Below are positions 47,399 through 64,000 of a stretch of 64,000 nt of DNA, piece by piece. The notes below the pieces were generated by a model. It searched no databases and had not been told where the DNA came from. It saw nothing but the letters and a program-made list of their open reading frames with translations. The translations under genes were made by a program, and so were the position numbers. Source of the DNA: Myxococcota bacterium. Lineage in GTDB: Bacteria > Myxococcota_A > SURF-8 > G963663525. The stretch is from positions 32,001-96,000 of the forward strand of contig CAXXVK010000006.1 in NCBI GenBank assembly GCA_963676915.2, given 5' to 3'. Numbering within the stretch: position 1 is the first letter of the stretch; each line of letters starts with the position of its first letter.

Positions 47399-49780
47399 TT
47401 AATCAGCTTGTAACGTTTCCGGGGGAAATACGGTATCGGCACAGCAACGGAACCCGAATTTCTCCGAACGATCGAAGGTTTGCGTCTGATTCTGGCATCG
47501 GGATTGATAATCGCTGTACGTTCCTCCCATGGTAGCATGTCCCGAAACGCCTTGAATGGTTGAAGTAAACTCCGCCACATTGCCAGACAGATCATACACT
47601 CCGTTTTGACTGATGCATTGATTGAGATATCCGGTAGGCATCAGTTTCGCCGGGTCGTTGAGCGAATAACGCCCATCGTTGCAGATGTTGTCCATTTCGG
47701 TATCGCCGTATGGGAAATCCGTGGCCGGGTCACCTTCACAAGCGGCAACCCATTCTTCCAAGGTACAAAGCCGTTTTTCCGCTCGCTCGCAGGCGGCAGC
47801 GGCATCGTCGGGCGTGAGATCATACCAGGGAATTTTTCCCGGAAGGCTTTGAGCCGCTTCGTTTTCGTATTCTTCTTCTCCATCGAGGCAGGGATTTTCA
47901 CGGAACGTTGCATCGTTGCAAGAAGCTTCGTAGCGATCGATACAAACCCTGTGTCCGGGAATCGGAACCATGTTTTCCGGGCAGCGATTGGTCGGACAGT
48001 AGCCCCGTTCGACGATGGCACCGATAAAGGATTCCGAATACCCTCCAGCCGAGTCGTTGAACGCGAACTGGATGGTTCCGGGTTTGTCGTAGCTATACAC
48101 GCCTCGTTTTCCGGCATACCGGCCGGGGTAATCGATGACCGAATATCGTAGCACGAGTGAATAACGTAGCGCTGACGAAACCAGGCAGTCGGGACCGCAG
48201 GTCTCTCCAAGTTTTCCTGCCGGGGAATAGCAGATCGAGGTTGTGCCGTTATCGGGACAGCCTCCCGGATCGAGCAGGAAGGATTGTTTGGGAAGCAGAG
48301 AGATGTCGGTGACCGTCCAATCGGAAATGGCAGGGATCATCATCAATTGACGATTGCATAGATTTTCGCAGGCCAACTCACGGATTTCGTAGCTTTCCAG
48401 CGGTACGCACAGATGTTCCGCACCGGCGAGGTAAGCGAGGTCGTTTTCGTCGAGACCATTGGGTGAAAGGTACAAATTATCGAGCATTCCTTTGAAGGGA
48501 TATTGCAGGGCGTTTTCGTCATCCAAGCTACCACCGAGCACGATGGGTGCTTCGCTTTCCTGCAAGAAGGCCATGACTTCTTTGGTGTCGCCATCTTTTT
48601 CGCCATCGATATACAAGGTCAGGTTGCCGTTGTCGAAAATTATGGCTACATGCGTCCATTTGTCTCTTGCAAGTGTCTGTTCTCCCTGAATAAATTGCTG
48701 GTCACCCAGTGCGTCCCCAAGCCTGAAAACAACCTTGCCTTGTTCGATGCTCAGTTGAAAATCCGGGGCGTCGCCTTTGGTTAGCAGGATTTCTTTGCCG
48801 GAATCCGGGGCATCCCATTCCGGTTTGATGTTGACTGCCAGACTCAGAGTCCGAGAGTAGCTTCCAAAATTGTCGAGAATGTATGCACGCTGTTCGAGAC
48901 CATTGAAAGACAATCCTGTGTCGTATTTGTTATCGGTACGCAGGACAGCATTTCCGAGGTTGACGGAGGTGGAACAGTAGCGATCCGGGGCGGCAATTTC
49001 GGAATTCAACTCGAAATTGAAGGCAAGAGGCTCACGCTCTTGTTCGCAGGCGGGTACGTAACAGACGGCGTCGGCGCAGGCCCAGTTCGCAGGGCATTCT
49101 TCAATATCGTAGTCTGTGCCGTCCAGGTAACAGGTTTTTATCGCGGCTCGGTCTTCCAGGCACTCGGAGGTTCCACCCTCGCAAAGCAAAGGACCGCATT
49201 CCCCCGTTTCGGGGTGGCAGAATTCGTCGGCCTGGCAGGTCTTCTGGTCGAATCCTTCACCTGATTCACGGCAGGTGGTGGATACGAATTTGCTGTCGCA
49301 GGTGGTGCAACCAGGTTCGCATTTTCCGTCGAGATCCAAAGGACACTCGGCAACGAATCCTTCTTCCGGCTCGATATCGCCGTCATCATCGCCATCAACC
49401 GGAGCGGGTTCGGTCTGACAACGTCCCGAGACGCAGTATTCTCCCGTGTCGCAGTCATCTTCCGAGGTACAGGGTGGTTGGCAGGTGTTGGTGTCGAGAT
49501 CGCAATAACCCTCACAATGGCTGTCGTAGAGGCATTCGAGGCATTGGCGGGTGGTCCGGTCACAAATTTTATCGTCAAGGCAGTCTGCGGAAGACGTACA
49601 TGCGCTGATGCAGGTGCCGGAGGAAGGCGAGCACCATGCGCCGGAGATGCCCGAGCATTCGGTGTCGGTTGTGCAGGTTTGAGCCTCCTCGTCGCCGCCG
49701 TTTTGATTCGTTCCCGTATCTTCACAAGCCAACAAGCAGGCAATCAGAAGAAATCCGAATAGAAATTTGAAACCGTTCAT
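47399..49780 (-). CDS. Cys-rich lipoprotein with LamG and FGE-sulfatase (SUMF1) domains
   Basis: Lipobox LLAC; CxxDxDC repeats; KWTHVAI...LYIDG...FKGMLD; CIDRYE, KRLCTLEEW, GVYDLSGNVAEF, GFRCC. Confidence 0.85.
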   Translation of the reverse strand: MNGFKFLFGFLLIACLLACEDTGTNQNGGDEEAQTCTTDTECSGISGAWCSPSSGTCISACTSSADCLDDKICDRTTRQCLECLYDSHCEGYCDLDTNTCQPPCTSEDDCDTGEYCVSGRCQTEPAPVDGDDDGDIEPEEGFVAECPLDLDGKCEPGCTTCDSKFVSTTCRESGEGFDQKTCQADEFCHPETGECGPLLCEGGTSECLEDRAAIKTCYLDGTDYDIEECPANWACADAVCYVPACEQEREPLAFNFELNSEIAAPDRYCSTSVNLGNAVLRTDNKYDTGLSFNGLEQRAYILDNFGSYSRTLSLAVNIKPEWDAPDSGKEILLTKGDAPDFQLSIEQGKVVFRLGDALGDQQFIQGEQTLARDKWTHVAIIFDNGNLTLYIDGEKDGDTKEVMAFLQESEAPIVLGGSLDDENALQYPFKGMLDNLYLSPNGLDENDLAYLAGAEHLCVPLESYEIRELACENLCNRQLMMIPAISDWTVTDISLLPKQSFLLDPGGCPDNGTTSICYSPAGKLGETCGPDCLVSSALRYSLVLRYSVIDYPGRYAGKRGVYSYDKPGTIQFAFNDSAGGYSESFIGAIVERGYCPTNRCPENMVPIPGHRVCIDRYEASCNDATFRENPCLDGEEEYENEAAQSLPGKIPWYDLTPDDAAAACERAEKRLCTLEEWVAACEGDPATDFPYGDTEMDNICNDGRYSLNDPAKLMPTGYLNQCISQNGVYDLSGNVAEFTSTIQGVSGHATMGGTYSDYQSRCQNQTQTFDRSEKFGFRCCADTVFPPETLQAD

Positions 49781-49952
49781 GGGTTTTGAGCCTCCCGAAA
49801 ACGCAGAATGTATCATCCAGAGATTAGACTCTCTTTTCGGCGAAATATATCACAACTGGATGAGAATGACAGGGGAGAACGCTCAAAGCTGCGGGTTTTT
49901 GCGCAGATTGGCTCGTTTTTTTACGATTTTACGGTGAGGATTTCAGAGGTGG

Positions 49953-50026: not shown

Positions 50027-51421
50027 TCAATTGGCGTTGATCGTTGGTTCGGCGATCCGTTCCAACCAGTCGTCCAATTGCTTTACGAATTCCAGCACCC
50101 GGTTCGGTGCTGCACCTCCTTGCACGTCGCGATGTCGGATGGAGGCTTCGAAATCGAGCGCCAATGCTTCCGGTGAAAGCTGCGGGAAGCGTTTTTGGCG
50201 CTCTTCCAGGTCTGTATCCAGCGAGTTTCGTCCTGACTGCTCCAGTTCTGCGACCCAACGGGCGACTTCACCGTGAGCGGCACGAAACGGAACGCCTGCT
50301 TCCACAAGACGGTCGGCAAGATCGGTGGCGAGCATGTCGCCACTGAGCGTACGAGCCATGTTCTCGGGGAAAAAGGTCACGTCGACTAAGGCTTCGGTCA
50401 TAACTCTGACGACGAGCTTTGTGGTGTCCACGGCATCGAACAAAGCCTGTTTGTCTTCCTGGAGATCTTTGGCGTAAGAGAGCGGCACGCCCTTGGTGAG
50501 CGTCAATAGCGCCGTGGATTGTCCAATGACACGCGCTGCCTTGCCACGAACCAGTTCCATAGCATCGGGGTTGCGTTTTTGCGGCATCATAGACGATCCC
50601 GTGGACCAGCGATCCGAAAACCGCAGGTAACCGAAGGATGGATGACTCCAGAACACGAATTGCTCGGCATACCTGGACAGGTGCGTTACGAGAATCGCGC
50701 ATGCACTTGCTGTTTCCTGGGCAGCATCCCGGTCGGCGATGGCGTCGAGGCTGTTGGGTAGTACATTCTCGAACCCCAATGCATTTGCAAGTTTTTTGCG
50801 GTCCACCTTGAACCCGGAACCTGCCAGAGCGCCACACCCCAGAGGACATAGCGCGGCTCGGTGGCGGGCGTCGGCCAGGCGGTCGAAATCTCGAAGCAGC
50901 GCGGCGGCCAGGGAGGACAGAAAATGTCCCAGCGTGATCGGCTGGGCCGGTTGCAGATGTGTGGTGCCTGCCAACAGGGTTGCGGCGTGGGTTTCGATAG
51001 GATCGCGCAATACACGAACAAGGGCGGCGACATCGTCCATCAACCCGCTCAAAGCATCCATGACATAGAGTCGCAGATCGGTTGCCACCTGGTCGTTTCG
51101 ACTGCGGCCGGTATGGATTTTAGCCCCGGTTTCGTCAAGACGTTCGGTCAGGAAACGCTCGACCAACGTATGCACGTCTTCGTCATCCGGCAGAACGTCG
51201 AAGGCTCCGGCATGGAATTCTTTGAGAAGCGCGTCTAGTTCCCGTTCGACGTTCGCCACTTCCTCGGCGCTGAAAACACCGATACGCCCCAATTCGCTCG
51301 CCCATGCACGATTGACGGCCACATCGTAGGGCAACAGGCGAATGTCTACGGGAAGCGAACGGTTGAGCGCGTCCATCAATTCGGAAACGGGCAAGTTCAG
51401 GCGGCCTTCGTACAGCGTCAT
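50027..51421 (-). CDS. argH: Argininosuccinate lyase
   Basis: EDVH, HTGRSRNDQVATD, THLQPAQP, TGSSMMPQKRNPD, KDLQEDK. Confidence 0.97.
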   Translation of the reverse strand: MTLYEGRLNLPVSELMDALNRSLPVDIRLLPYDVAVNRAWASELGRIGVFSAEEVANVERELDALLKEFHAGAFDVLPDDEDVHTLVERFLTERLDETGAKIHTGRSRNDQVATDLRLYVMDALSGLMDDVAALVRVLRDPIETHAATLLAGTTHLQPAQPITLGHFLSSLAAALLRDFDRLADARHRAALCPLGCGALAGSGFKVDRKKLANALGFENVLPNSLDAIADRDAAQETASACAILVTHLSRYAEQFVFWSHPSFGYLRFSDRWSTGSSMMPQKRNPDAMELVRGKAARVIGQSTALLTLTKGVPLSYAKDLQEDKQALFDAVDTTKLVVRVMTEALVDVTFFPENMARTLSGDMLATDLADRLVEAGVPFRAAHGEVARWVAELEQSGRNSLDTDLEERQKRFPQLSPEALALDFEASIRHRDVQGGAAPNRVLEFVKQLDDWLERIAEPTINAN

Positions 51422-51422
51422 G

Positions 51423-52703
51423 TCAGTCTCTCTTGAAGGAATCCCGGTACTTCGAGTATTTCGGCGCGGTATATCCTTTCAGACCATCGCCGCCTTCCAT
51501 TTCGATCAGCGTGCGAACCTGGATCGGCAACCCATACAGGTTGATGAAGCCTTCCGCGTCCTTTTGGTTGTAAACGTCGTCCTCACCGAATGTGGCGAAA
51601 TCTTCGCGGTACAGACTGTAGGGAGAACGTCGACCCCGGACGATGACGTTGCCTTTGTACAGCAACAGCCGGACTTCTCCGGTGACGTTTTGTTGGGTTT
51701 CCTGGAAAAAGGCGTCGAGTGCTTCACGCAGGGGCACGAAATAGCGACCGTTATAGATCAACTCTGCATATTTTGGAGCGAGTTGTTCTTTGAAATGCAA
51801 GGTTTCGCCATCGAGCACGAGGGTTTCCAATTCATGATGGGCGGAGTAAAGAATCGTTCCGCCCGGTGTTTCATAGACACCGCGTGATTTCATTCCGACG
51901 AGGCGGTTTTCTACCAGATCCACTCGCCCGATGGCGTGGTCACGACCGATGGTGTTGAGTTGCGTCAGCAATTCGGCGGGAGAGTAGCTTTTGCCGTCGA
52001 TGGTTTTCGGGAATCCTTTTTCGAATCCGATGGTGACTTCCCGGCCTTCGTCCGGTGCGTCCCAGGGATGGCGGGTCAACTGGTAGATATGCGGTGGCGC
52101 GGCTTGCCACGGATCTTCCAGTTCTCCGCCCTCGCTGGACAGGTGCAGCAGGTTGCGGTCGTGGCTGTAGACGCCTCGCTTTTTCACTTTGAGTTCCACG
52201 TTATGTTTTTCGGCATAGGCAACGGCGTCTTCGCGGGAGCGGATATCCCAGATGCGCCACGGAGCAATGATCGGAATTTTCGGGTTGAAGGCTTTGAACG
52301 CCAACTCGAAACGTACTTGATCGTTGCCTTTTCCCGTGCATCCGTGTGCTACGGCATCGGCGCCTTCGCTTTCTACCGTGTCCATCATGTGCTTGGCGAT
52401 CAACGGACGAGCAATGCTTGTTCCCAGCAGATAGCGCCCTTCGTAAATTGCACCGGTCTGGATCATCGGGAAGATGTAGTCGGCGCAGAATTCTTCCTGT
52501 AGATCGGCGATGACGACTTTGCTTGCGCCAGTCTTGATCGCTCGTTCTTCCAGACCGTCCAACTCTTCGTCACCCTGCCCGACGTTGCCGACGAAGGCGA
52601 TGACTTCGCAGCCGTATTTTTCCTTGAGCCAGGGAATGATGATCGAGGTGTCCAGCCCTCCCGAATAGGCGAGCACGGCTTTTTTAATGGATAGGTTTTC
52701 CAT
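51423..52703 (-). CDS. argG: Argininosuccinate synthase
   Basis: [40 protein letters not shown]. Confidence 0.98.
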
Positions 52704-52756: not shown

Positions 52757-53185
52757 TTAAAATACCTGGTCTTTCAGGTGGTTCATCCATCTGTCACGTT
52801 GTTCTTTTGAATTGAAGGCCGCAAACACCGTGTCGTCTCCCGCGATGGTTCCGGTCAGATCGTCATCTTCCGCAGCATCGAGTACGACCGCCACCGAACT
52901 GGCGTATCCCAGAGTAGTGTGAACCACTGCCATGTAGGGGCCAGCGGGTAGAAGTTTGAGAATGCGCCCTTTTAATTTTGAAATTTCACCATCCGATTGC
53001 GTCGGTACGGCGTAACGTCCTGAAACTTTGGAAAGATTCAAGGCGCGGATATCTCTCGAAACCGTTGTTTGCGTCGTTTCGAAACCCCGTTTGGAGAGCT
53101 TTTCACGAAACTCGGTTTGCGTCGCGATGTTTTCTTCTCGCACCATCTCCAAAATGGTTTCGCGTCTTCTCTGGGTTTCGGACAT
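52757..53185 (-). CDS. argR: Arginine repressor
   Basis: IATQ...TQTTVSRDI, GTIAGDDT. Confidence 0.95.
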   Translation of the reverse strand: MSETQRRRETILEMVREENIATQTEFREKLSKRGFETTQTTVSRDIRALNLSKVSGRYAVPTQSDGEISKLKGRILKLLPAGPYMAVVHTTLGYASSVAVVLDAAEDDDLTGTIAGDDTVFAAFNSKEQRDRWMNHLKDQVF

Positions 53186-53197
53186 TACGATATTCCT

Positions 53198-54274
53198 TCA
53201 ATCTTCCAGGTTGCCAAAAAACGAGAGCGCCAGTTGCGTATACCCTTCGATACCTTTCTCCAACTCTTCGATAGAAATCCATTCGTTCGGCTGATGGGAG
53301 CGCGCCGGGTCGCCGGGACCGACTTTGATGGCCGGAATCTCTCGCCGAGCCAGAGCCGCCCAGTCGCTGGCGGCATCCGAAGCGAAAAATCGCTGTTTGG
53401 CGAGCGCTTGTTTTGCCGCACGTAAAATTCGTGCGTTGTCCGGTGTCCGGCAGGGAACCCACTGATCGTCAATCACACGTAGGGTTCCTTCTATCGTTTG
53501 TTCAATAATCTCGGTAAGTTCCTGGTGAGTATAGCTCGGCGTACTGCGAAGATCCAACACGGCTGTGGCATATGGGGGCGTTACGTTATCGGCGACTCCC
53601 GCTTTCAGGCGTGTCGGTGTCAGGCGGATGTTTCCAAGTTCGTTGTGCACCCTATCGAATTGTAAGGCTTTCAGTCGCTGTAAATCACTTGATAGCCGAT
53701 AGATCGCGTTCGGACCATCGGTGCGTGCCGCATGTCCTTGAACGCCATTTGCGGAAAGTTCCAGCACCATCAAGCCTCGTTGCGAGGTGGCAACATCCAT
53801 TTTTGTGGGTTCGCCAACCACTGCGCCGTCGATCGATCCGAGATTTTTCAATAATTTCGGCAGGGAAGGGCTGTTGCCTTCTTCTCCGATGGAAAATGCA
53901 GCGATGGCGCGACCTTGTTTTAGTCCTTGCTGTTTTAATCGTATCATGGCGAACAACATCGCCGCCGCCGAACCTCTGGCATCTACTGCGCCACGACCAT
54001 ACAGCCGGTTTTCTTCGCGTACGGAACCAAATGGCGGATGCGTCCAGCCATCACCTGCCGGAACCGTATCGAGATGCGTACAGAACAATAGCACTGGACC
54101 GGGTTTGTCCGCCGAAATCTCGAAAACGATGCCGTCTTCGGAAACGTCCGGTTTGAAACCCATACGCTCGACCCATTGGGCGGATCGTTCGAGGATCGCC
54201 GTTTCCCGGCCCGTTACGCCTTCAACGCAAAGCAGGTCGGCAAGCAGTTCAATTGGTTCAGGCGAGTTCTTCAT
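53198..54274 (-). CDS. argE: Acetylornithine deacetylase (M20 family)
   Basis: HLDTVP, YGRGAVD, GEE, GEPT, GHAA, GPGD...SHQPNE; position inside the arg operon. Confidence 0.85.
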   Translation of the reverse strand: MKNSPEPIELLADLLCVEGVTGRETAILERSAQWVERMGFKPDVSEDGIVFEISADKPGPVLLFCTHLDTVPAGDGWTHPPFGSVREENRLYGRGAVDARGSAAAMLFAMIRLKQQGLKQGRAIAAFSIGEEGNSPSLPKLLKNLGSIDGAVVGEPTKMDVATSQRGLMVLELSANGVQGHAARTDGPNAIYRLSSDLQRLKALQFDRVHNELGNIRLTPTRLKAGVADNVTPPYATAVLDLRSTPSYTHQELTEIIEQTIEGTLRVIDDQWVPCRTPDNARILRAAKQALAKQRFFASDAASDWAALARREIPAIKVGPGDPARSHQPNEWISIEELEKGIEGYTQLALSFFGNLED

Positions 54275-55193
54275 CCTGGTACTTTTGCTTTTCCCTCTGG
54301 TTGACGATCATCGTGCCGCATCCTTCACCTGTGAACAGTTCTACGAGCAATGAATCGGCAGGTTCCGTGCCGATAATGTGCGTACGTTCCACTCCTTGTT
54401 CTGCAGCATGGAGACAGGCTTCCAGCTTGGGACGCATTCCTGCATCGATGGCTCCCGACTCCAGCAACTCCACGAGGTCGTCCCGGTCGGCGAAGGGTAT
54501 CAGCGTGGTGGGATCGTTTTTATCCTGCAACACGCCCGGAGCACCGGTCACGAAAATGAGTTTCTTGGCGTTCAGGGATACCGCGATGGCTTGGGCCAGA
54601 CCGTCAGCGTTGATGTTGAGCAACGAGCCTTCTTTATCGGCACAGAGACAGGCGACGGTGGGGACGAATCCGGCTTCCAGTTGCGTTTGCAACAGGCCGT
54701 TGTCGATGCCGGAAATATCTCCTACGTGGCCGAAATCGACGAGTTTTTCCACGCCGTCGTCATCGGTGATTTTCACGGGAGGACGTTTGGAGGCACCGAC
54801 CATGCGTCCATCCACGCCTGTCAGTCCCAGGGCTTTGACTCCGGCCTTGTTGAGTACGGCGCAGAAGTCGGTGTTGATCGTTCCGGCGTAGGTCATGACG
54901 GCGATGTCCAGCACTTTGTCGGAGGTCACCCGGCGCCCCGCGACGATTTCCGGTTCGATACCCAATTGACGTGAGAGACGAGTGGCCTGGGGACCACCGC
55001 CGTGCACGAGCACAATCCGGATGCCGAGGTCGCACAACAGGGCGATTTGCTCGACCAGCGAGTTTTTTTTGTTTTCATCGTCCAGAATACCGCCGCCGAT
55101 TTTCAGGACGAATGTTTCGTTTCTGTACAGTCTGAAATAGGGTTGGGCTTGTTTCAACCCTTCGATTCTTGTGTTCATTGGAAAGTTCTCCAT
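54258..55193 (-). CDS. argB: Acetylglutamate kinase (arginine-sensitive type)
   Basis: N-terminal helix with AQPYF, KIGG, VHGGGPQ, GRRVT, NINAD, GMRPK, ELFTGEGCGT. Confidence 0.95.
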   Translation of the reverse strand: MENFPMNTRIEGLKQAQPYFRLYRNETFVLKIGGGILDDENKKNSLVEQIALLCDLGIRIVLVHGGGPQATRLSRQLGIEPEIVAGRRVTSDKVLDIAVMTYAGTINTDFCAVLNKAGVKALGLTGVDGRMVGASKRPPVKITDDDGVEKLVDFGHVGDISGIDNGLLQTQLEAGFVPTVACLCADKEGSLLNINADGLAQAIAVSLNAKKLIFVTGAPGVLQDKNDPTTLIPFADRDDLVELLESGAIDAGMRPKLEACLHAAEQGVERTHIIGTEPADSLLVELFTGEGCGTMIVNQREKQKYQDEELA

Positions 55194-55211: not shown

Positions 55212-56375
55212 TTATAGTTTGGATAAAACTTCTTTCAGTGCCGAGACAAATCGCAGCGCCTCGTCTCGAGTCAATGTCAGTGGCGGCATGACGCGCAGAA
55301 CGTGAGGATCAATGCAGCTTCCCGAAAGGATCAAGTGACGATCCCTAAGTACCGGCTGTATCGCTTTCGTTTCCGCTTCCGTTTCGATGCCGACAAGCAG
55401 TCCCAAACCCCGAACGTTCTTGACTCCCGGGATTTTTGACAGTTCCTCGTGAAGCAACTTGCCGAGTTGGTGGGCGTTGTCGATCAGTTTGTCTTTTTCG
55501 AGCGTTTCCAGGGTTGCCAGTCCCGCCGCCGAGGCTACAGGTCCGCCGCCGAAAGTCGTACCCAACATACCTGGTCCGATCTGATCGGTGATGTTCCGGT
55601 CGGCCAAAGTGGCTGCTACGGGAAATCCTCCGCCAAGACCTTTGGCGAGCGTCAGAACATGAGGGTGGACGCCCAACGCCTGCGAAGCCGTGAACGCACC
55701 GCTTCGTCCTGTGCCGCACTGCACTTCGTCGAATACCAGCAGCGAGCCGGTTTCGTCGCAGCGATCACGTAGCGCCTGCAAAAAAGCCTTGTCCGCCGTT
55801 CGCGCGCCGCCAAGTCCCTGTACCGGTTCAATCACGACCGCCGCGCAGCCGTCGCCGATAGCTTTCAGCGCTGCATCGGTGTAGTTGAACGGTACGATTT
55901 TGACGTGAGGATACAGCGGTTCACCTTCGAGGCAAGCGAGCTTACGGTACTTTTCGATACCGCCAATGGAAAGCATCAGCAGGCTGCGTCCGTGGAATCC
56001 ACCCTCGAAGGCTACGACGGTTTTTCGCTTCGTGACGATCCGGGCGAGCGTCAGCGCGTTTTCGTTGCTTTCCGCTCCGCTGTTACACAAAAAGGCGGCG
56101 TACATGTTTTCCGGGGCCATGGCCACGAGTTTTTCACAAAACTTCCGTCGGATTTTCAGGTCGACCGCATTGGAGTAAAAAGTCAGTCGTTCGGCCTGTT
56201 GCGCAATGGCTTTGGTTAGAGCCGGATGGGCGTGCCCTAGTGCTGCCACGGCGTGACCGCCGTACATGTCGAGATACTCCCTGCCTTCGGAGTCGATGAC
56301 TACGTTGCCGTGACCTGAGACGATTTCGAAGGGAAGCTGTTGATAAACAGGCATTTGAGGAGGAGCGCTTAGCAT
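55212..56375 (-). CDS. argD: Acetylornithine aminotransferase (class III)
   Basis: YLDMYGGHAV, NSGAESNE, FHGRS, EPVQG, DEVQCGTGR, LAKGLGGG, TTFGG. Confidence 0.92.
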   Translation of the reverse strand: MLSAPPQMPVYQQLPFEIVSGHGNVVIDSEGREYLDMYGGHAVAALGHAHPALTKAIAQQAERLTFYSNAVDLKIRRKFCEKLVAMAPENMYAAFLCNSGAESNENALTLARIVTKRKTVVAFEGGFHGRSLLMLSIGGIEKYRKLACLEGEPLYPHVKIVPFNYTDAALKAIGDGCAAVVIEPVQGLGGARTADKAFLQALRDRCDETGSLLVFDEVQCGTGRSGAFTASQALGVHPHVLTLAKGLGGGFPVAATLADRNITDQIGPGMLGTTFGGGPVASAAGLATLETLEKDKLIDNAHQLGKLLHEELSKIPGVKNVRGLGLLVGIETEAETKAIQPVLRDRHLILSGSCIDPHVLRVMPPLTLTRDEALRFVSALKEVLSKL

Positions 56376-57400
56376 GGAAAACCTCCCGCGATCTGCAATC
56401 CCGCCGTCTCTTCCAGTCCGAGCGACAGGTTCATGTTCTGAATGGCTTGTCCCGCTGCACCTTTGACGAGGTTGTCTAGTGCCAGCGTAATGACGAGTTC
56501 CCGTTGCGATTGCGTGACGTGCACGTGGACGTGGTTTGTTCCTGCCACTTCGGCTACTTGTGGTGGCGCTTCGGTTACCGTGACGAACGGGTGATCGCTA
56601 TAGTAATCCCGAAAGAGCGTTTCGGCATCTAAATCACTGTAAATTTCGTGTTCCAGGTAGGTCGTCGTGTGAATGCCACGCACGAACGGACCCGAGTGGG
56701 GAAGCAGGCGGATCGACGGCTTTTGTCCCGTGACGGTTTCGATAGTCTGGACGATTTCCGGCTCGTGCTGATGGGCAAGCAGTTTGTAGGCCCAGAAATT
56801 CCCGTGACGATGCGGATGATGTGTACCGGGTTTGGGATGAATACCCGATCCCGAGGAGCCGGTAACGGCATAGACGGCCGGATTTACAGGTAATATCGAT
56901 TCCTTAGCCAAAGGCAACAAGGCCAGTTGCACTGCCGTGGCAAAACAACCGGGATTCGCAATACGGCTGTGTCCTTTGAGGTCGTTTCGAAACGCTTCGG
57001 GAAGTCCGTAGCGGTACCGGGAGACGAGATCGAAACAGGTGTGCGGCATGAACGAACGTTCGAATGCTTCACGGTCATGCAAACGGAAATCGGCGGCCAG
57101 ATCGACGATGCAGGGAAGCTCGGAGTCGGTCAGATCCGCAAGAAAACTCATGCTTTTGCCATGGGGCAGAGCAGAAAACAGCACGTCGGCATCTTCGAGA
57201 ACTTTCGAAGGGGAAAACGCCTCGAAATCGAGAGCCAGCAGATGACGAAGACCGCGATGCACGGCATGAACGGGTTTGCCTTCGTGACTATGGCTGTAGG
57301 CGTGGAGTCCGGAGACGTTCGGATGTCCCGCAAGCAGGCGTAGCAATTCGCCTCCTGCCATGCCTCCAGCGCCGAGGACCGCTACTCGCAGATCGTTCAT
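56369..57400 (-). CDS. argC: N-acetyl-gamma-glutamyl-phosphate reductase
   Basis: DLAADFRL, YGLPE, IANPGCFAT, HQHEPEI, DNLVKGAAGQAIQNMN. Confidence 0.96.
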   Translation of the reverse strand: MNDLRVAVLGAGGMAGGELLRLLAGHPNVSGLHAYSHSHEGKPVHAVHRGLRHLLALDFEAFSPSKVLEDADVLFSALPHGKSMSFLADLTDSELPCIVDLAADFRLHDREAFERSFMPHTCFDLVSRYRYGLPEAFRNDLKGHSRIANPGCFATAVQLALLPLAKESILPVNPAVYAVTGSSGSGIHPKPGTHHPHRHGNFWAYKLLAHQHEPEIVQTIETVTGQKPSIRLLPHSGPFVRGIHTTTYLEHEIYSDLDAETLFRDYYSDHPFVTVTEAPPQVAEVAGTNHVHVHVTQSQRELVITLALDNLVKGAAGQAIQNMNLSLGLEETAGLQIAGGFPC

Positions 57401-58461
57401 GCCGGTTTCTCCACTTTTTCCAGTGCCTTCAGTACCACTCCGGCCAATCCTTCCAGATCGTAGCGAGCGTTGTGTGCGGCGAGTTTCAGTTGGTTTTCGA
57501 TGTATCCCCGGCCTACGCCGTTATCCGTTACCGGTCCGGCCATGGCGTCGATGGTCAAGCCGAAACGCTGGTGATAAATTTCTTTTGCTCCATAGGCCGC
57601 TACGGGATCGGGGGCGCATACGATGTGACACGAAGCCGCCTGTTGGAATTCGGGATCGGAAAGGATGTCCGATACACCGTAATCGCCCAACAGACCGTCA
57701 CCCAGTTCGGCTACGATCAGATCGGGTTTCTCGGAAGCCAGGAAGTTGATAAGTCCTTTAGAGACGGGAAGAATCCGTGCCCCTCGTGTAGAGACGACCC
57801 CGGCATCGGTGAAGTCGAGGATACGGCTGGCCCCGGCGTCTTTCATGGCGAGAACGTCGCGCATCAGACTTACACCGGTTAGTTTGCAGGCAGCGACCTG
57901 CATGCCTTGATGGGAAAGCGCTCGGACGATTTCGGTGGCGGCCACGGTTTTTCCGCTGTTCATGCTCGTGCCTGCCACAAAGACGAGAGGCGGCAGCTTG
58001 GCGAGAGTTTCGCTAGGTTCGATTCCGTTCGATTCGATGCGTGCTGGCTGGCCCACGCGGTCGCCGACACGGGGGAATTTCAGAATGGAACCCAGCACTT
58101 CGGCCTCGAAGGGGTCACCCAACTCCGGGTTGATGGCGGTGCAACGTCCCAGCACGCCTCCCAAGTTGAGCACTTGTACCGTATCTCCGGCGGCGAGCGT
58201 ATCGGGCACTACTCCTGCATACCCTTTAAGCGCCATTCGGTAGCCTAAAACACCTGCAAGAATATCGTCGCGGTGGAGTTTGATCATCCGCCCGTTGATA
58301 TCCTCGATACGGTTGTAGGTGTACTTGCTGTTGAGAATACGCACAGCCAGCAGGTGACCTTCCTCGCAGACGATTTCGTCTCCGACGAGCACGTCGGGAG
58401 AAAGCGAGGCATTGCGCGTTGAAGAGGCGATACGGTCGAGTTTGATTTTTCGGACTTGCAT
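57397..58461 (-). CDS. DUF1611/DgcN-like P-loop protein, first gene of the arg operon
   Basis: VAGTSMNSGKT, AACKLTG, DFTDAG..ST, IVAELGDGL; stop overlaps the argC start (ATGA). Confidence 0.7.
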   Translation of the reverse strand: MQVRKIKLDRIASSTRNASLSPDVLVGDEIVCEEGHLLAVRILNSKYTYNRIEDINGRMIKLHRDDILAGVLGYRMALKGYAGVVPDTLAAGDTVQVLNLGGVLGRCTAINPELGDPFEAEVLGSILKFPRVGDRVGQPARIESNGIEPSETLAKLPPLVFVAGTSMNSGKTVAATEIVRALSHQGMQVAACKLTGVSLMRDVLAMKDAGASRILDFTDAGVVSTRGARILPVSKGLINFLASEKPDLIVAELGDGLLGDYGVSDILSDPEFQQAASCHIVCAPDPVAAYGAKEIYHQRFGLTIDAMAGPVTDNGVGRGYIENQLKLAAHNARYDLEGLAGVVLKALEKVEKPA

Positions 58462-58477: not shown

Positions 58478-58524
58478 ATGCATAAATATGCAACAAAATG
58501 CAGTTATAATGCATGAAAGATGCA
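58478..58524 (-). promoter_or_regulatory. ARG-box array (ArgR operator) in the arg promoter region
   Basis: TGCATAAATATGCA at 58479-58492 plus further ATGCA half-sites (five in all, 10-11 bp apart); TTGACT on the minus strand at 58528-58533. Confidence 0.8.
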
Positions 58525-59054
58525 TAAAGTCAAGTTTAAAACGGTGGAATATTCGTGTGATTTTGCAGAAACGTACCGTTTCGCTTTTTTTGAGTCAATT
58601 TTTCAGGAGGATTGTGATGGAATACCGGATTCAGCCTGTGAAGAAAATACTTATCAGGGATACTATGAATGAGATTCTCTTGGTGAATTGAAAACCAGTA
58701 TTAGGCAAATGTAGAAATTGCAATTTAATCGTGTTTTGTTGTTTCCATCCCTTTTTACACTTGTTGAGCTCTTCCAAATTATGATCCAGTAAAGAATTTT
58801 TGCAGGAAAAGAGAGGCTTTATTACGAGGAAAGGGAACTGCCAATCCAGGCCACGAGAACTGGATGTGTGTTCCTGAATGTTGGGTGCTGAAAGGTCACT
58901 TCTACGAAATCCGATGCTCTGGTTGGAACGTGGCGCACTTACAGAAAGCTCGAGTTTGCTCTGACTCTCCACCTTTTTCTGCAATTTGTATAATTCTGCC
59001 TTGTACTCTATATTAATATAAGAAATTATATAGTTTAAGGTTTGGAGGTTGCCA

Positions 59055-60208
59055 ATGACTAAGGGGCATCAGAAAACGTATTTTTTTGTTTTCTATATTA
59101 CTACGATTTTCATTTTCGTGGCATGTGGCGGGAGTGATGATGGGGACGATGATTACGAAGATAATGGAAGCAGCGAATATGGCCGATCGGAGCCTAGTTC
59201 CTGTGAATCCACGACTGGGGGCGATTGTTTCGCCTGTGACATGCCTCCGAATATCCCAGCGGTTCCCGATCACCTGGAACCTGAAAATTTACCTTGGGAA
59301 ATGGGCCGCCTTTTAGCGATCAGTCACCCATCAACACCCCTATCGGAGAAAACCCCACGATACACTCCAATTCGGAAGCGATGATCGAAAAGTTGGTTAA
59401 GGATCAGGAGGAAAACGGCTTTTTCATTACTTTGACCAAGTGGACTATGCCAATCTATCTTGCCGATGCTTCGACCAAACGTTATCGCTTGGAATTAATC
59501 AACAACTGGGGGTGTGGAACTGCTCTTTTAGACGTGCCGATCCCGGACTGGACCATGCCAGATGACAGCAACGACGGTCGTATGGTGATTATCGATACGG
59601 AAAACAATATGTCTTTCGATATCTGGCAGGGGTGTACCAACGGAGAAACCTGGAGTGCCAGTTGGGCCAACTCCATAAGTCTGGATGGAACGGGAATTTT
59701 TCCGGACGGTATGTCTTCGAGAGGCTCGGGATTCTCTCTGATGGGCGGCATGATCTGGCCCCATGAGTTGGAAGCGGGGAAAATCGATCATGCTCTAGTA
59801 TTTTCCACCACCTATGCTCGTAGCGGTGGTCCGGTAGACCCTGCAACGGAAAGCGATGGCTACAAGAAGGGTGATGACTACCTCCCCGAGGGGGCACTCG
59901 TGCAACTGGATCCGGGGTACGACACCAGCGGTCTCAACGATATCGAAAAAATCATCGCCGAGGCACTTAAAACCTACGGAATGTATCTTGTAGACATTGG
60001 CGGCGGTATTGAGCTTCAAGCGGTCCATGTGTTATCGTTCCCGGAAAATCCTTATACAAAGTTTGGTATGGAAGCGGATCAGGATGGCGTTTGGAATTTC
60101 GACAACCTGAGTATCGAGCATTTCCGGGTGATCGATTTTGGTGAACAACATCCGGACTGGACCGATGGTCGGTGTTTCGAGGATGATCCGAAATTCGACT
60201 ATCCCTAA
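59055..60208 (+). CDS. Hypothetical lipoprotein split by a -1 frameshift near 59285-59300
   Basis: ORF1 has GGAGG RBS, lipobox FVAC and an acidic linker; overlapping ORF2 (PFSDQSPINTPI...IDHAL...PEG...ALKTYGMYLVD) has no start signals of its own. Confidence 0.7.
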
Positions 60209-61387: not shown

Positions 61388-63508
61388 TCAACGGTTCCCA
61401 ACTGTCGATGAGAGAAATTCGTCAAGGGACATTGTTGCAATATTCCCTGCATCAGAAGCCTTTATTTGAACGTGGCTTGCGTAGACATGCAGATAGAGGG
61501 ATTCGTAGACAGCGACAAGATCCGTCGAAGGTTGGTTCAAGCAAAGTTTCTGAAATTCATAGGAAAATTCGTCTGCGAGCCAGGTATCCATTCCCACGTC
61601 GTATTGGGTGCTTATGGAGTTTTCCGTTTCATTGGATGATGTAAACATCACGACGCCTGGGGTATCCACTTCTTGTCCCATCAAGCCGGAATGGCAGGAT
61701 TCCACGACCAGAAGCACTCGCCGATACCGTTCCTGTTCATACATTTTCGATAAAGTTTCCGCCAACAATTTCGGGGTCATATTCGAAACTACGCCTCCGT
61801 TCCAATCGAGGTGATCGGTTGCGCCGACTTTCAGCCCTTCGTCCGTTCCATGGCCGACGAAAAAGATGAATAGGTTGTCTCCCGGACCGCTCTCCACGAC
61901 GGTTGGAAGTACTTCCGTACTTTCTCCCGCCAGGATGTGAAGAATGTCGAAAGACGTAAGATTCTCCAGCAGGTAATCCACCTCGACGTCGTGATACAGA
62001 TTTTCTCCTCCCACCTCGTTATAGATCTCGCCCGGATGGAGATTTTTTCCCGAATCCGCGATATCGTCCGCGAGAATCAGCAGAATGTGATCGTCATCAA
62101 AACCGTTACTTTTCAGAATCTGGTAAAGCGCCAGTGCATCAGCTTGGTGTCTGTAATTGGTCCATCCCGAGGAAACGGCTGCAATCAACGCCCACGATCC
62201 CGTGTGATCACCCGGTTGATAATCACTCTCGTTATCGAGGAGCTGTTGTTTTGCATGGGATGCAAAGGACCGATCGATGGATTGATCGTACCCGGACGTA
62301 AACCATTTATCCTCAACGAATTCTCCGTTTTCAACTTTCCAATGTGCGTAAGTGGACGAAACAAGGTCGGTTTGCACCGTTTCGTCGTAATCGAGCAGTC
62401 CGGTGCTTCCCGAAATGTCTGGAAAAGAACCTTTTCGCAGTCGTTCCAGAGTTTCCGAGACACCATCCCGACCCCAGCTCGTTACCTCACCATTTCCGGC
62501 AACAACGCGGGTCATTGCCTCGGCAAGATAACCTCCTCCCAATCCTCCGGAAACCTCCAATCCGTAAGCCAACAGAAGAAGGGCGTCGTAACTGTTGGCT
62601 GCATATTCGGCAGGCCGTTCACCGAAACGTTCCAGATGAGCTTCCACGAAACCGGATTCGGGATGCGAAGCCAAACGAATGCCTTCCACGCCTTCGGCTT
62701 CGTCCCCGAGTTCATCCAGAAGCGAAGAGGTTTGAGCTGCATCGGAAAGCAGCAGGTGGATATCGGGATCGAACTGTCGCGCCTGGCGAACGATGCATGC
62801 TGCGGATTCCGGTTCGCTCACCGCAACCACAAGAGCATCCGGCTGGTTGCTTAATGCTTTTTCGACCGCTTCATCACAGCTTTCCAGGTCGGAATTGTAT
62901 CGAATCACGTTTTTCGCATCCAAATTGAGTTCGGTTGCGAAAAATCCGAACCAATCGAAAAAAGTCGCTCCATAACGGTTGTTGGAACTGATGAGAGAGA
63001 TGCTTTCGGCGTCACTCTCCTGTATGAGAAGCAACAAGGCTTTGACTTGCGCCGTATCCGATTCGACGGTACGCCAAAAATATCCTTTTCCCGCGAAAGC
63101 ACGGAAAATCTCGGCCGCCGTTGCGGAAGGCGTTACGAACACCTTTCCGGCATCGAGAAATATCGAGGCCGTTTCGAAAACGCCGTCCGAGGTATCCGGT
63201 CCGATGACGCCCAGAATTTCGGGATCGTTCACGAAATTCTGGGCGGCATCTTCGTAGCCGGTTACGAACGTGTCAGTATAGACCAATTCGAGATTTCTAC
63301 CGGCCACACCGCCGGATTCATTGACGTTTTCGAGTGCCCAATTCAAAGAGCGCTCCCACTGCATGGACTCGGGACCGGACAATGGAAGCATCACGCCGAT
63401 TTTCAATGATGGTTTCGCCTCCTCGGAGCAACCACCGGCTCCGAGGAGGCATACGAGAAGGTTCATGAGTAGAATCAAAGAGATGGTGGTGGTTTGTCGA
63501 TCGTTCAT
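61388..63508 (-). CDS. LivJ-type solute-binding domain fused to a C13 (legumain/GPI8-like) cysteine peptidase; probable lipoprotein
   Basis: Signal ending GGC; IGVMLPLSG, NESGGVAGR, SYDALLLLA; then WALI, NYRHQAD, LILADD, FVGHG, VESCHSG. Confidence 0.87.
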   Translation of the reverse strand: MNDRQTTTISLILLMNLLVCLLGAGGCSEEAKPSLKIGVMLPLSGPESMQWERSLNWALENVNESGGVAGRNLELVYTDTFVTGYEDAAQNFVNDPEILGVIGPDTSDGVFETASIFLDAGKVFVTPSATAAEIFRAFAGKGYFWRTVESDTAQVKALLLLIQESDAESISLISSNNRYGATFFDWFGFFATELNLDAKNVIRYNSDLESCDEAVEKALSNQPDALVVAVSEPESAACIVRQARQFDPDIHLLLSDAAQTSSLLDELGDEAEGVEGIRLASHPESGFVEAHLERFGERPAEYAANSYDALLLLAYGLEVSGGLGGGYLAEAMTRVVAGNGEVTSWGRDGVSETLERLRKGSFPDISGSTGLLDYDETVQTDLVSSTYAHWKVENGEFVEDKWFTSGYDQSIDRSFASHAKQQLLDNESDYQPGDHTGSWALIAAVSSGWTNYRHQADALALYQILKSNGFDDDHILLILADDIADSGKNLHPGEIYNEVGGENLYHDVEVDYLLENLTSFDILHILAGESTEVLPTVVESGPGDNLFIFFVGHGTDEGLKVGATDHLDWNGGVVSNMTPKLLAETLSKMYEQERYRRVLLVVESCHSGLMGQEVDTPGVVMFTSSNETENSISTQYDVGMDTWLADEFSYEFQKLCLNQPSTDLVAVYESLYLHVYASHVQIKASDAGNIATMSLDEFLSSTVGNR

Positions 63509-63536
63509 GAAACCTCTCGGATGGAGTATTTTTTCG

Positions 63537-64000
63537 TTACGGCGATTCACAGACTACATTGCGAAGATAGTCGCAAGAAACGTCATTCCAAGAGCGTTCG
63601 TTGTCCGTGTATGCCTCGATACAATTTTCGCTATTGTTTTTATTGTCCGGCTCATCAGTGTACCAGTTTTCGTAGCTCCAGGGCGTTCCGTCCTGCCACT
63701 CCCAACCATCTCTCTTCAGGTAGGTAACCGGATAACAAATTATAGAGACGCAGAATTGGCCTATGGTTTCGACTCTGATATCATGACCACCCAGCCAGAC
63801 TTTTTCATTGTACCCATTCAAAAGAGTGACAAGGTCAGCCTGTTTTTCTGCGCTGTCAATCGTAGCCAAGTGACCACCTTCCGTCCAGGTGGCACAAAAT
63901 TCCTGGGCTCTTTCCTGGTTGTAAGTCATGTCGAATAGCGCCAGGTTCCCTTGTGTGGCCACGGGATCGGGAAACATCTGCTCGCAAACAAAGGATTTCT
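63537..64000 (-). CDS. C-type lectin domain protein, tandem domains, 5' end outside the window
   Basis: GHLATI, VWLGG, WEWQDGT...YENW...EPDN...ENC...WNDVSC...VVCE; frame stays open to the window edge and begins KSFVCE, the end of a preceding domain. Confidence 0.87.
   Translation of the reverse strand, partial: KSFVCEQMFPDPVATQGNLALFDMTYNQERAQEFCATWTEGGHLATIDSAEKQADLVTLLNGYNEKVWLGGHDIRVETIGQFCVSIICYPVTYLKRDGWEWQDGTPWSYENWYTDEPDNKNNSENCIEAYTDNERSWNDVSCDYLRNVVCESP

Follow-up and report, generated by a model that had tools for sequence, protein, structure and literature searches.

Organization of the operon

The window, as the whole 64,000-nucleotide stretch of Myxococcota DNA analysed is called here, carries on its minus strand an eight-gene operon in the order ORF-argC-argD-argB-M20-argR-argG-argH. 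The leading gene (protein P0001; 57397..58461, minus strand, as for all genes given below) starts with ATG and encodes 354 amino acids; it is a candidate N-acyl-L-glutamate synthase gene and is hereafter called the ORF. Its stop codon overlaps the start codon of argC within an ATGA sequence (57397-57400, minus strand). The argC gene (56369..57400) scores above the cut-off of TIGR01850 with 334 bits, as does argB, encoding N-acylglutamate kinase (54258..55193), with TIGR00761 (200 bits). Between them lies argD, for an N-acylornithine aminotransferase (55212..56375), identified by Aminotran_3 and by TIGR00707 at 356 bits, which is under the cut-off of 410. The argB product, of 311 residues, consists of the kinase domain alone and has neither a GNAT nor a NAT domain. 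The next gene encodes an M20 hydrolase of the ArgE/DapE family (53198..54274), which falls under all equivalog cut-offs and is presumed to be the N-acylornithine deacylase of the operon. The remaining genes are argR, the arginine repressor (52757..53185; domain/family scan), argG for argininosuccinate synthase (51423..52703; NF001770, 602 bits) and argH for argininosuccinate lyase (50027..51421; TIGR00838, 476 bits). The same arrangement is seen in genome G023, with the ornithine transcarbamylase (OTC) gene inside the cluster.

Upstream of the ORF, the exact palindrome TGCATAAATATGCA at 58479-58492 and five ATGCAW words, spaced 10-11 nt over 58478-58525, mark a putative ArgR-type operator (58478..58525). 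It is overlapped by a sigma-70-like promoter (58506..58533, minus strand; TTGACT, a 16-nt spacer and CATTAT), which is a match to consensus only. The palindrome has a single exact copy in the 5.18-Mb assembly. With at most one mismatch it recurs in promoter regions that precede arg clusters at L011, L014 (two copies), L005, L057, L059 and L062 (two copies, 21 nt apart). Genome-wide, its frequency with one mismatch equals that of the control (7 versus 7, hence no enrichment), so that the operator reading rests on position and conservation across loci. No copy was found before the unlinked OTC gene.

The initial annotation had reported this gene order, an operon free of argA, argJ and GNAT domains, and an ORF placed first, behind ARG boxes and coupled to argC through ATGA. 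These observations were borne out by the coordinates, the palindromes and a domain scan, in which GNAT, NAT and ArgJ domains were absent from all eight operon proteins.

Domain structure of the ORF product

The AF2 model of the ORF product (pLDDT 96.5) is divided into an N-terminal beta-rich domain (residues 1-150; 58012..58461, minus strand) and a C-terminal P-loop domain resembling BioD and DUF1611 in hhalign and Foldseek comparisons (residues 159-354; 57400..57987, minus strand). For the N-domain, no Pfam match and no fold relative in the PDB was found, the best Foldseek E value being 0.52 with this domain alone as query. Seven of its residues (Y49, E53, R58, R75, P86, N99 and C107) are invariant among 23 orthologs. 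The Pfam/NCBIfam domain scan returned no GNAT, NAT or ArgJ domain anywhere in the ORF.

Within the C-domain, the Walker A loop GTSMNSGKT (residues 164-172; 57946..57972, minus strand) aligns with GTGTDVGKT of BioD, and a second motif, AACKLTG, occupies residues 190-196. Residues G170, K171, K193 and E252 do not vary across 75 sequences and align with the GK of the BioD P-loop, the invariant Lys of BioD (KPLESG) and its Glu (EGAGG), respectively. In the hhalign columns the ORF accordingly carries the BioD signature of GTxxxxGKT, a Lys after strand 2 and the Glu of E-G-x-G-G. In profile-profile comparison, too, BioD ranks first (96.2%, E 2.5e-9), ahead of DUF1611 (94.2%, E 1.1e-7, 187 columns); DUF1611 and BioD match each other at 95.4%. 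The ORF also differs from BioD. It reaches 16.9 bits with the BioD equivalog TIGR00347, for which the cut-off is 83.3, it has the additional 150-residue N-domain, and its context is arg rather than biotin; a separate BioD is encoded in the window genome. Enzymes of the BioD-like clade use ATP to activate a carboxylate or carbonyl oxygen for subsequent attack by a nitrogen, and an amide ligase needs chemistry of this kind.

The P-loop had been described as DUF1611-like in the initial annotation. Both motifs on which that description was based are present, but the label itself is sub-threshold: PF07755 (DUF1611_C) scores 19.9 bits, under its gathering score of 25, and its match is confined to residues 158-193; the genome search gave the same result. 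PF17396 (DUF1611_N, Rossmann-like) gave no match, whereas a genuine DUF1611 protein (L029) matches both models. The N-domain of DUF1611 is unrelated to the beta domain of the ORF, and DUF1611 has TGQT where the ORF has the invariant K193. The DUF1611 proteins of these genomes are encoded by separate genes outside arg clusters.

These comparisons bear on the function proposed with that label, namely that the ORF is a DgcN-like, acetyl-CoA-dependent L-glutamate N-acetyltransferase and thus a true N-acetylglutamate synthase (NAGS). DgcN, which we take to be a DUF1611 protein, is named D-glutamate N-acetyltransferase (EC 2.3.1.312); it acylates the amino group of glutamate, as is proposed for the ORF, and the C-domain is indeed a remote homolog of DUF1611_C by hhalign. 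However, the DgcN model NF041892 (cut-off 480 bits) did not match the ORF in the scan at E <= 0.01 or in the genome search at E <= 1. Nor was any DUF1611 structure present among the 50 Foldseek matches listed for the ORF model; structures of this kind are 2g0t, 2obn and 7xrj, the last matching the DUF1611 profile. The Foldseek matches include SRP54/FtsY, BioD and HypB-type metallochaperone GTPases, and the PDB profile search returned generic P-loops only (FtsY, BioD and MobB). As judged by sequence and profile comparison, the kinship of the ORF to DgcN and DUF1611 is remote, nonspecific and no closer than that to BioD, and acetyl-CoA chemistry is therefore not transferable by homology.

The HypB-type matches would suit a different role, in which the ORF is an accessory NTPase (a SIMIBI-type metallochaperone or activator of the M20 enzyme, or a regulator) and N-acetylglutamate is made by an unlinked GNAT. 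The P-loop argues otherwise, being of the BioD type with GTxxxxGKT and the second Lys.

Step 1 of arginine biosynthesis in the window genome

In the assembly of the window genome (90.8% complete), no ArgJ, full ArgA, NAT (PF04768) or LysW was found. The blank for PF04768 is informative, since the same search matched 24 of 151 relatives. The LysW-carrier route was considered and ruled out, as the genome has no LysW and both argB and argC exceed the cut-offs of their respective equivalogs. A canonical OTC is encoded elsewhere in the genome (419 bits), and no ArgF' was found there. Step 1 is the sole gap in the arginine pathway of this genome, and the presence of an M20 gene in the operon means that the ORF is not needed as a deacylase here. 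The genome has 21 GNAT-domain matches, none of them on this contig, and one of these could be a short NAGS.

Distribution of the ORF and of known step-1 enzymes

Orthologs were identified in 41 genomes, and in all 23 of these whose gene context was examined (13 relatives, 2 Acidobacteriota, 1 Fimbriimonadales and 7 gammaproteobacteria) they adjoin arg genes. In every gene order determined, argC directly follows the ortholog, with the exception of G033, in which ArgF' does. Within the phylum sample of 151 genomes, the ortholog is present in 31, ArgJ in 77 and NAT in 24; ArgJ and NAT co-occur in 11 genomes, whereas the ORF co-occurs with ArgJ in none and with NAT in none. These counts include related genomes and are hence not independent observations. 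An exact split is seen within one family of 12 genomes (f12), where 3 have the ORF and 9 have ArgJ. Overall, ArgJ is absent from all 41 ortholog-bearing genomes, full ArgA from the 23 checked, and NAT from the 31 of the phylum sample; the 10 ortholog-bearing genomes of other phyla likewise have neither ArgJ nor full ArgA. The arrangement is conserved, and the ORF and the three known solutions to step 1 are mutually exclusive.

Loss of the pathway accounts for part of this pattern: 30 of the 151 genomes have neither the ORF nor ArgJ nor NAT, and in a 41-genome subset argB is also absent from 10 of the 15 genomes that lack both the ORF and ArgJ. One ortholog-bearing genome (G045) encodes a stand-alone GNAT that resembles the GNAT domain of ArgA (E 1.4e-11).

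The linkage to arg genes and the lack of co-occurrence with ArgJ, ArgA or NAT support a step-1 role for the ORF well, as far as comparative genomics can predict one. The homolog survey thus agreed with the initial annotation both in the anti-correlation that it had anticipated and in regarding the ORF as the best candidate for the missing step.

An M20 gene is kept in the clusters of the window, G023 and L005; none was found in those of L004, L006 and L007 within the stretch examined, or in the seven gammaproteobacterial clusters within about 8 kb. This distribution weighs against the accessory role, as does the identity of the conserved tight neighbour, which is argC and not M20; nor does that role predict the exclusion with ArgJ and NAT. 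A distant paralog of the ORF does adjoin an M20 hydrolase in two genomes (G024 and G039), and this, with the 21 GNAT matches in the window genome, speaks for an accessory NTPase, which we nevertheless regard as decidedly unlikely. The paralog-family neighbourhood gave no lead on chemistry.

The family is large. A profile of the seven gammaproteobacterial orthologs retrieved more than 7500 proteins at E <= 1e-60, and a scan of genome contigs with the single ORF protein as query gave 6 loci. Homologs of the ORF number more than 2358, every one named hypothetical, and the records include Myxococcales, Acidobacteriota, Gemmatimonadota, Fimbriimonadales and Gammaproteobacteria.

Comparison with a published prediction

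The idea of an alternative step-1 enzyme, put forward as new in the initial annotation, had already been printed by Price et al. in the 2026 GapMind study (PLoS Genetics, PMC13759103). There an alternative ArgA, marked as experimentally unconfirmed, is predicted to be an N-succinylglutamate synthase, represented by ACG33_RS14135 (UniProt A0A127FCT3) of Steroidobacter denitrificans. It is described as a hypothetical protein encoded nearly always in arg clusters and never together with ArgA (PMC13759103; bioRxiv Appendix 2), with remote resemblance to DgcN and Foldseek similarity to 7XRJ, which is cited as the DgcN structure. At position 92 of the adjacent ArgF', the residue is stated to be A, P, S or V (bioRxiv Appendix 2).

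The ORF very probably belongs to the same family. A protein with a Steroidobacteraceae name, taken as a proxy for the published sequence, shares 42% identity with the ORF across 347 residues (E 2e-94, 273 bits), and the four described points, namely the clusters, the absence of ArgA, the remote similarity to DgcN and the ArgF' residue, were reproduced on orthologs of the ORF. In the accessible parts of the paper we found neither the exclusion with ArgJ and NAT nor the comparison with BioD. The window lineage differs from the published case in having no ArgF', with a canonical OTC in its place and an M20 deacylase in the operon. According to Price et al. (2026), Steroidobacter lacks both ArgA and ArgE; with the M20 deacylase present, only one step is missing in the window, which makes it the cleaner case.

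The absence of both enzymes from Steroidobacter would be accounted for if the ORF family recycled the acyl group in the manner of ArgJ, from N-acylornithine or N-acylcitrulline to glutamate, and so filled the ArgA and ArgE gaps wherever M20 is missing. Such a transfer would be in keeping with the strict exclusion with ArgJ and with the gammaproteobacterial clusters, in which M20 was not found within about 8 kb. Transacylation, however, has no need of the nucleotide chemistry to which the invariant Walker A Lys and the BioD-like Lys and Glu point, and M20 is retained in the clusters of the window, G023 and L005. Acyl recycling is in our judgement very improbable.

The acyl group and the proposed pathway

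The nature of the acyl group was addressed through the ArgF' proteins linked to the ORF. At the position that distinguishes N-succinylornithine enzymes, the succinyl-type residue is found in all 15 that were readable (A in 10, V in 3, P in 2, E in 0); the ArgF' proteins of G033 and G014 gave no match in the motif search and were left uncounted. These ArgF' proteins accompany orthologs elsewhere; in the window genome a canonical OTC but no ArgF' was found. Clades of the OTC type are nested among those of the ArgF' type. The N-acetyl product assigned in the initial annotation is consequently not established, given this residue and the N-succinylglutamate named by Price et al.

The ArgF' residue and the nesting of the OTC-type clades also tell against the DgcN-like NAGS, as does the M20 protein, whose best PDB match is 3ct9 (149 bits) and which is far from E. 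coli ArgE (7rsf, 59.8 bits). In its classical form the acetyl route pairs a canonical OTC with an ArgE-like M20, as found here, and the published Foldseek similarity to 7XRJ also speaks for an enzyme of that kind. With the sub-threshold PF07755 match, the unrelated beta domain in the place of DUF1611_N and the higher hhalign score of BioD, we nevertheless consider a DgcN-like acetyltransferase unlikely.

The ORF product is probably the N-acyl-L-glutamate synthase of the first committed step, replacing ArgA, ArgJ or NAT and feeding the pathway encoded by the operon. As a non-orthologous replacement, it would acylate L-glutamate at its amino group. In the proposed scheme, ArgR represses the operon by way of the palindromes over the promoter, and the ORF would be translated first, coupled to argC. 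The resulting N-acylglutamate would pass to ArgB, ArgC and ArgD, the M20 enzyme of the operon would strip the acyl group from N-acylornithine, and the unlinked canonical OTC, followed by ArgG and ArgH, would complete arginine.

If the step-1 role is granted, the acyl group in this lineage is on balance expected to be succinyl, with acetyl a substantial possibility. As to the donor, ATP with the free acid, by way of an acyl-phosphate as in enzymes of the BioD/CobQ type, has about an even chance; acyl-CoA, as in DgcN, is well conceivable, and any other donor would be surprising. A more specific scheme can be suggested tentatively, though as a whole it must be called doubtful. Here a BioD-type ATP-dependent ligase would join free succinate or acetate, through the acyl-phosphate, to L-glutamate, and this would be combined with a hybrid route that would have arisen at least twice from clusters of the ArgF' type. 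N-succinyl intermediates would lead to N-succinylornithine, which would be desuccinylated by M20 and passed to an ordinary OTC, and the acid released by M20 could be re-used directly without CoA. We found no description in the literature of such a hybrid succinyl/M20/OTC route to arginine.

Step 1 of arginine biosynthesis is a gap met repeatedly in genome annotation. Were the step-1 role correct, a large family would gain a function, and false calls of arginine auxotrophy would vanish for the groups that carry the ORF. The protein would also be the first N-acylglutamate synthase with a BioD-like P-loop and not a GNAT or ArgJ fold. The same slot of the pathway is filled with other folds by ArgA (kinase domain and GNAT), ArgJ, ArgB-NAT (PF04768) and ArgA2 of Bacteroidetes, the last being a GNAT enzyme of the succinyl route (PMC9026213).

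Several longer forms of the ORF were encountered. Two ORF-ArgC proteins (P0273 and P0275), an ArgG-ORF protein (P0274) and P0272 were left uncounted, since each is a single sequence from a single contig and may represent read-through of adjacent genes. In P0204 (626 amino acids), by comparison, the ORF domain is fused to an ArgB-like kinase domain, an arrangement found on 4 contigs that speaks for the step-1 role and parallels the kinase fusions of ArgA and ArgB-NAT.

Genomic context of the ORF

The 354-residue P-loop protein gene (hereafter, ORF; ATG start, 57397–58461, minus strand) opens a tightly packed operon on the minus strand that continues with argC, argD, argB, the gene of an ArgE/DapE-family M20 hydrolase, argR, argG and argH. 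The NCBIfam equivalog cut-offs are met by argC, argB, argG and argH, and argD, argR and the M20 hydrolase are family matches below the cut-off. The initial annotation was accurate on the position of the ORF, its motifs GTSMNSGKT and AACKLTG, the gene order without argA, argJ or a GNAT domain, and the sign of translational coupling, an ATGA overlap of the ORF stop and the argC start (57397–57400, minus strand). A Pfam scan found a GNAT, NAT or ArgJ domain in none of the eight operon proteins. A reading of the ORF as an ArgJ-like, acyl-recycling transferase seems very unlikely to us.

The window's own genome assembly, which is 90.8% complete, contains no ArgJ, no LysW and no ArgF', the carbamoyltransferase that acts on N-acylated ornithine. 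Of ArgA only the kinase domain was matched, by argB itself, and no full-length ArgA was found. A search for the NAT domain (PF04768) was also blank, a result validated by the matches it returned in 24 of the 151 genomes sampled from the phylum. A canonical ornithine carbamoyltransferase (OTC; 419 bits) is encoded on a different contig, and the second carbamoyltransferase match is PyrB. The genome does hold 21 GNAT-domain matches, none on the contig of the window; that one of these unlinked proteins performs step 1, with the ORF as an accessory NTPase, seems distinctly improbable to us.

Domain structure and remote homologues

All P-loop matches of the ORF in Pfam (DUF1611_C, CbiA, AAA_26) were below threshold, with DUF1611_C reaching 19.9 of the 25 bits required, over residues 158–193 only. 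NCBIfam returned weak matches to MobB, CobQ and BioD, and none to its DgcN model. A database search gave more than 2358 homologues, every one annotated as hypothetical, with named records from Myxococcales and Gemmatimonadota. A representative library holds 1401 clusters of the family at E ≤ 0.001, and more than 7500 proteins match a profile of seven gammaproteobacterial orthologs at E ≤ 1e-60.

An AlphaFold model of the ORF calculated from a 75-sequence alignment (pLDDT 96.5, pTM 0.92) predicts a beta-rich N-domain (about residues 1–150) and a P-loop C-domain (about residues 159–354). The 50 PDB matches listed by Foldseek comprise only SRP54/FtsY, BioD and HypB, with TM-scores of at most 0.40 over the C-domain; no DUF1611 structure is among them. 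The N-domain modelled alone (pLDDT 91) gave no PDB match by Foldseek (best E 0.52).

Profile–profile comparison aligned the ORF family with six true DUF1611 proteins at 94.2% (E 1.1e-7, 187 columns) and with six BioD proteins at 96.2% (E 2.5e-9, 166 columns), and DUF1611 with BioD at 95.4% (E 2e-8, 171 columns). The three families are thus about equally distant, which makes the ORF family a third branch of the BioD-like P-loop group and not a DgcN subfamily. In the BioD alignment, GTSMNSGKT of the ORF falls on GTGTDVGKT, invariant K193 (AACKLTG) on the invariant Lys of KPLESG, and invariant E252 (AELGDG) on the Glu of EGAGG. Residues G170, K171, K193 and E252 are invariant across 75 family sequences, whereas DUF1611 has TGQT at the place of K193. 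Of the kinship with DUF1611/DgcN first proposed, remote P-loop homology is retained and the specific relationship is not.

Linkage to arginine genes and exclusion of other step 1 enzymes

Orthologs of the ORF adjoin arginine genes in all 23 genomes with context examined. argB lies within about 4.5 kb of the ortholog in 12 of 13 relatives, and in the thirteenth (G033) argR and ArgF' are next to it. The linkage extends to two Acidobacteriota, one member of the Fimbriimonadales and all seven strong matches among 400 sampled gammaproteobacterial genomes.

In the phylum sample, an ortholog (called at ≥ 347 bits to the family profile) is present in 31 of 151 genomes, ArgJ in 77 and the NAT domain in 24, with none of the three in 30. 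The ORF occurs together with ArgJ in 0/151 and with NAT in 0/151, and ArgJ and NAT together in 11/151. These are given as counts, without statistics, because the genomes are related and not independent. One family of 12 genomes (f12) is cleanly split between three with the ORF and nine with ArgJ. Ten more carriers of an ortholog, from other phyla, lack both ArgJ and full-length ArgA, and full-length ArgA was found in none of the 23 ortholog-bearing genomes checked; the predicted anti-correlation with argA and argJ thus holds in these sets.

In a 41-genome set, 15 genomes have neither ORF nor ArgJ, and 10 of these lack argB as well. Family f9 is without ORF and ArgJ in this set, and in both members scanned its ArgB is a bifunctional ArgB-NAT of kinase domain and PF04768 (L097, 7906–9234, in genome G020; L098, 6582–8015, in genome G014), a third step 1 solution inside one phylum.

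Acyl group and pathway variants

Price et al. (GapMind 2026, PLoS Genet, PMC13759103) describe ACG33_RS14135, a hypothetical protein from Steroidobacter denitrificans, with homologues 'virtually always' in arginine operons and never together with ArgA homologues. In Foldseek it weakly resembles 7XRJ, the structure of DgcN. The authors predict that this protein is the missing ArgA, an N-succinylglutamate synthase, because position 92, which marks acetyl versus succinyl substrates, is A, P, S or V in 90% of 70 neighbouring ArgF' proteins; their table lists the prediction as not confirmed by experiment. The ORF family fits this description, the comparison being by description and by a protein named from a Steroidobacteraceae MAG (42% identity to the ORF over 347 residues, E 2e-94), a proxy for the ACG33_RS14135 sequence. 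The interpretation in the initial annotation was anticipated by this unconfirmed prediction. The window adds a cleaner case with a single pathway gap, and its analysis adds the exclusion with ArgJ and NAT, an OTC-type pathway variant and the finding, from sequence profiles, that BioD is at least as close to the ORF family as DgcN.

Position 92 was located with the help of a series of mutant structures of the Xanthomonas enzyme in the PDB. Among 15 readable ortholog-linked ArgF' proteins, ten have A there, three V and two P, and none has E; one more was unmatched by the motif. Genome G020, which belongs to f9 and lacks the ORF, carries an ArgF' with the Glu of the acetyl signature, and the ArgF' of G014, unmatched by the motif, was left out. 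Genome G031 has two copies (contig C22, 20164–21129, and contig C178, 4341–5315; L081 and L082), with Pro in that of the ORF cluster and Glu in the unlinked one.

In seven of the 13 ortholog-bearing relatives, namely the window's own order and genome G023, ArgF' is absent and only a carbamoyltransferase resembling OTC is present; in G023 a single cluster reads argR-ORF-argC-argD-argB-M20-OTC. The OTC type appears at least twice on a maximum-likelihood phylogeny built from 23 orthologs and five paralogs, in the window's six-member clade, whose sister group is ArgF'-type Acidobacteriota (support 89/84), and in G023, sister to an ArgF'-type genome (99/96). Should the ArgF'-type clusters use succinyl intermediates, the more parsimonious reading would be that the window's lineage uses them too, with desuccinylation at ornithine. 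An acetyl route agrees equally well with the layout of the window. The window's M20 hydrolase is much the closest to PDB 3ct9 (149 bits), with lower scores for DapE structures (56–96), Xanthomonas acetylcitrulline deacetylase (65.2) and E. coli ArgE (59.8).

Predicted function and acyl donor

Gene context, the exclusion with three known solutions and the presence here of a gene for every step but step 1 lead us to predict that the ORF probably supplies N-acyl-L-glutamate. The outline of the original interpretation stands in this respect; where it went too far was in specifying DgcN kinship and an acetyl group. An acyl-CoA donor is favoured by analogy with DgcN and all known N-acetylglutamate synthases. 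In favour of ATP and a free acid are the full conservation of the Lys, Lys and Glu of the BioD type, kept only in part by DUF1611, and the amide-forming chemistry that BioD-like enzymes carry out. We lean slightly towards the ATP route. The acetyl-CoA-dependent N-acetyltransferase originally proposed, a variant of the N-acyl-L-glutamate synthase reading and not exclusive of it, is rather unlikely.

The fused protein P0204 (626 aa, metagenomic, on four contigs) joins an ORF-family domain (residues 3–309) to an ArgB-like amino-acid kinase domain (364–595), mirroring the kinase and acyltransferase layout of ArgA. Other long forms of the family are singletons and may be read-through.

Operator and promoter

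Upstream of the ORF, the palindrome TGCATAAATATGCA (58479–58492) is the sole exact copy in the 5.18-Mb assembly, and five ATGCAW words spaced 10–11 nt apart (58478–58525) overlap a sigma-70-like promoter, in keeping with the ARG boxes first noted there. Copies of the palindrome with no more than one mismatch occur in arginine-cluster promoter regions at six other loci from three phyla, and the cluster at locus L062 has two copies 21 nt apart. No copy precedes the unlinked OTC gene. We read these palindromes as putative ArgR operators from position and conservation and not from enrichment, because one-mismatch copies across the genome are no more frequent than in the control. Two ORFs farther upstream (304 aa, 59294–60208, plus strand; 117 aa, 58631–58984, minus strand) have no Pfam match, and a terminator-like hairpin (58568–58582, plus strand) lies between them and the promoter.

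Paralogs and other genes in the window

A full-length paralog family (about 30% identity to the ORF, 218–252 bits to the family profile) occurs outside arginine clusters in at least 16 of the 400 sampled gammaproteobacteria (L008, 8833–10020; L063–L073 in genomes G041, G182, G186, G324, G453 and others). Recurrent downstream genes encode an MsbA-like ABC exporter, which also matches a cyanophycin-associated ABC transporter model, a PHB-depolymerase-like alpha/beta hydrolase and an uncharacterised protein of 390–410 aa. In genomes G024 (L024/L074) and G039 (L075), the gene immediately downstream of an M20 hydrolase similar to glutamate carboxypeptidase encodes a more remote paralog, with 35% identity and a long branch on the tree; both genomes have ArgJ and full-length ArgA.

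Elsewhere on the minus strand of the window, a 720-aa protein (61388–63550) has an unusual pairing of a periplasmic amino-acid-binding domain (Peripla_BP_6) with a C13 legumain-like peptidase, a Cys-rich, secreted-looking protein of 805 aa (47399–49816) has Laminin_G_3 and FGE-sulfatase domains, and at the window edge a protein of 146 aa (63537–63977) carries a C-type lectin domain.
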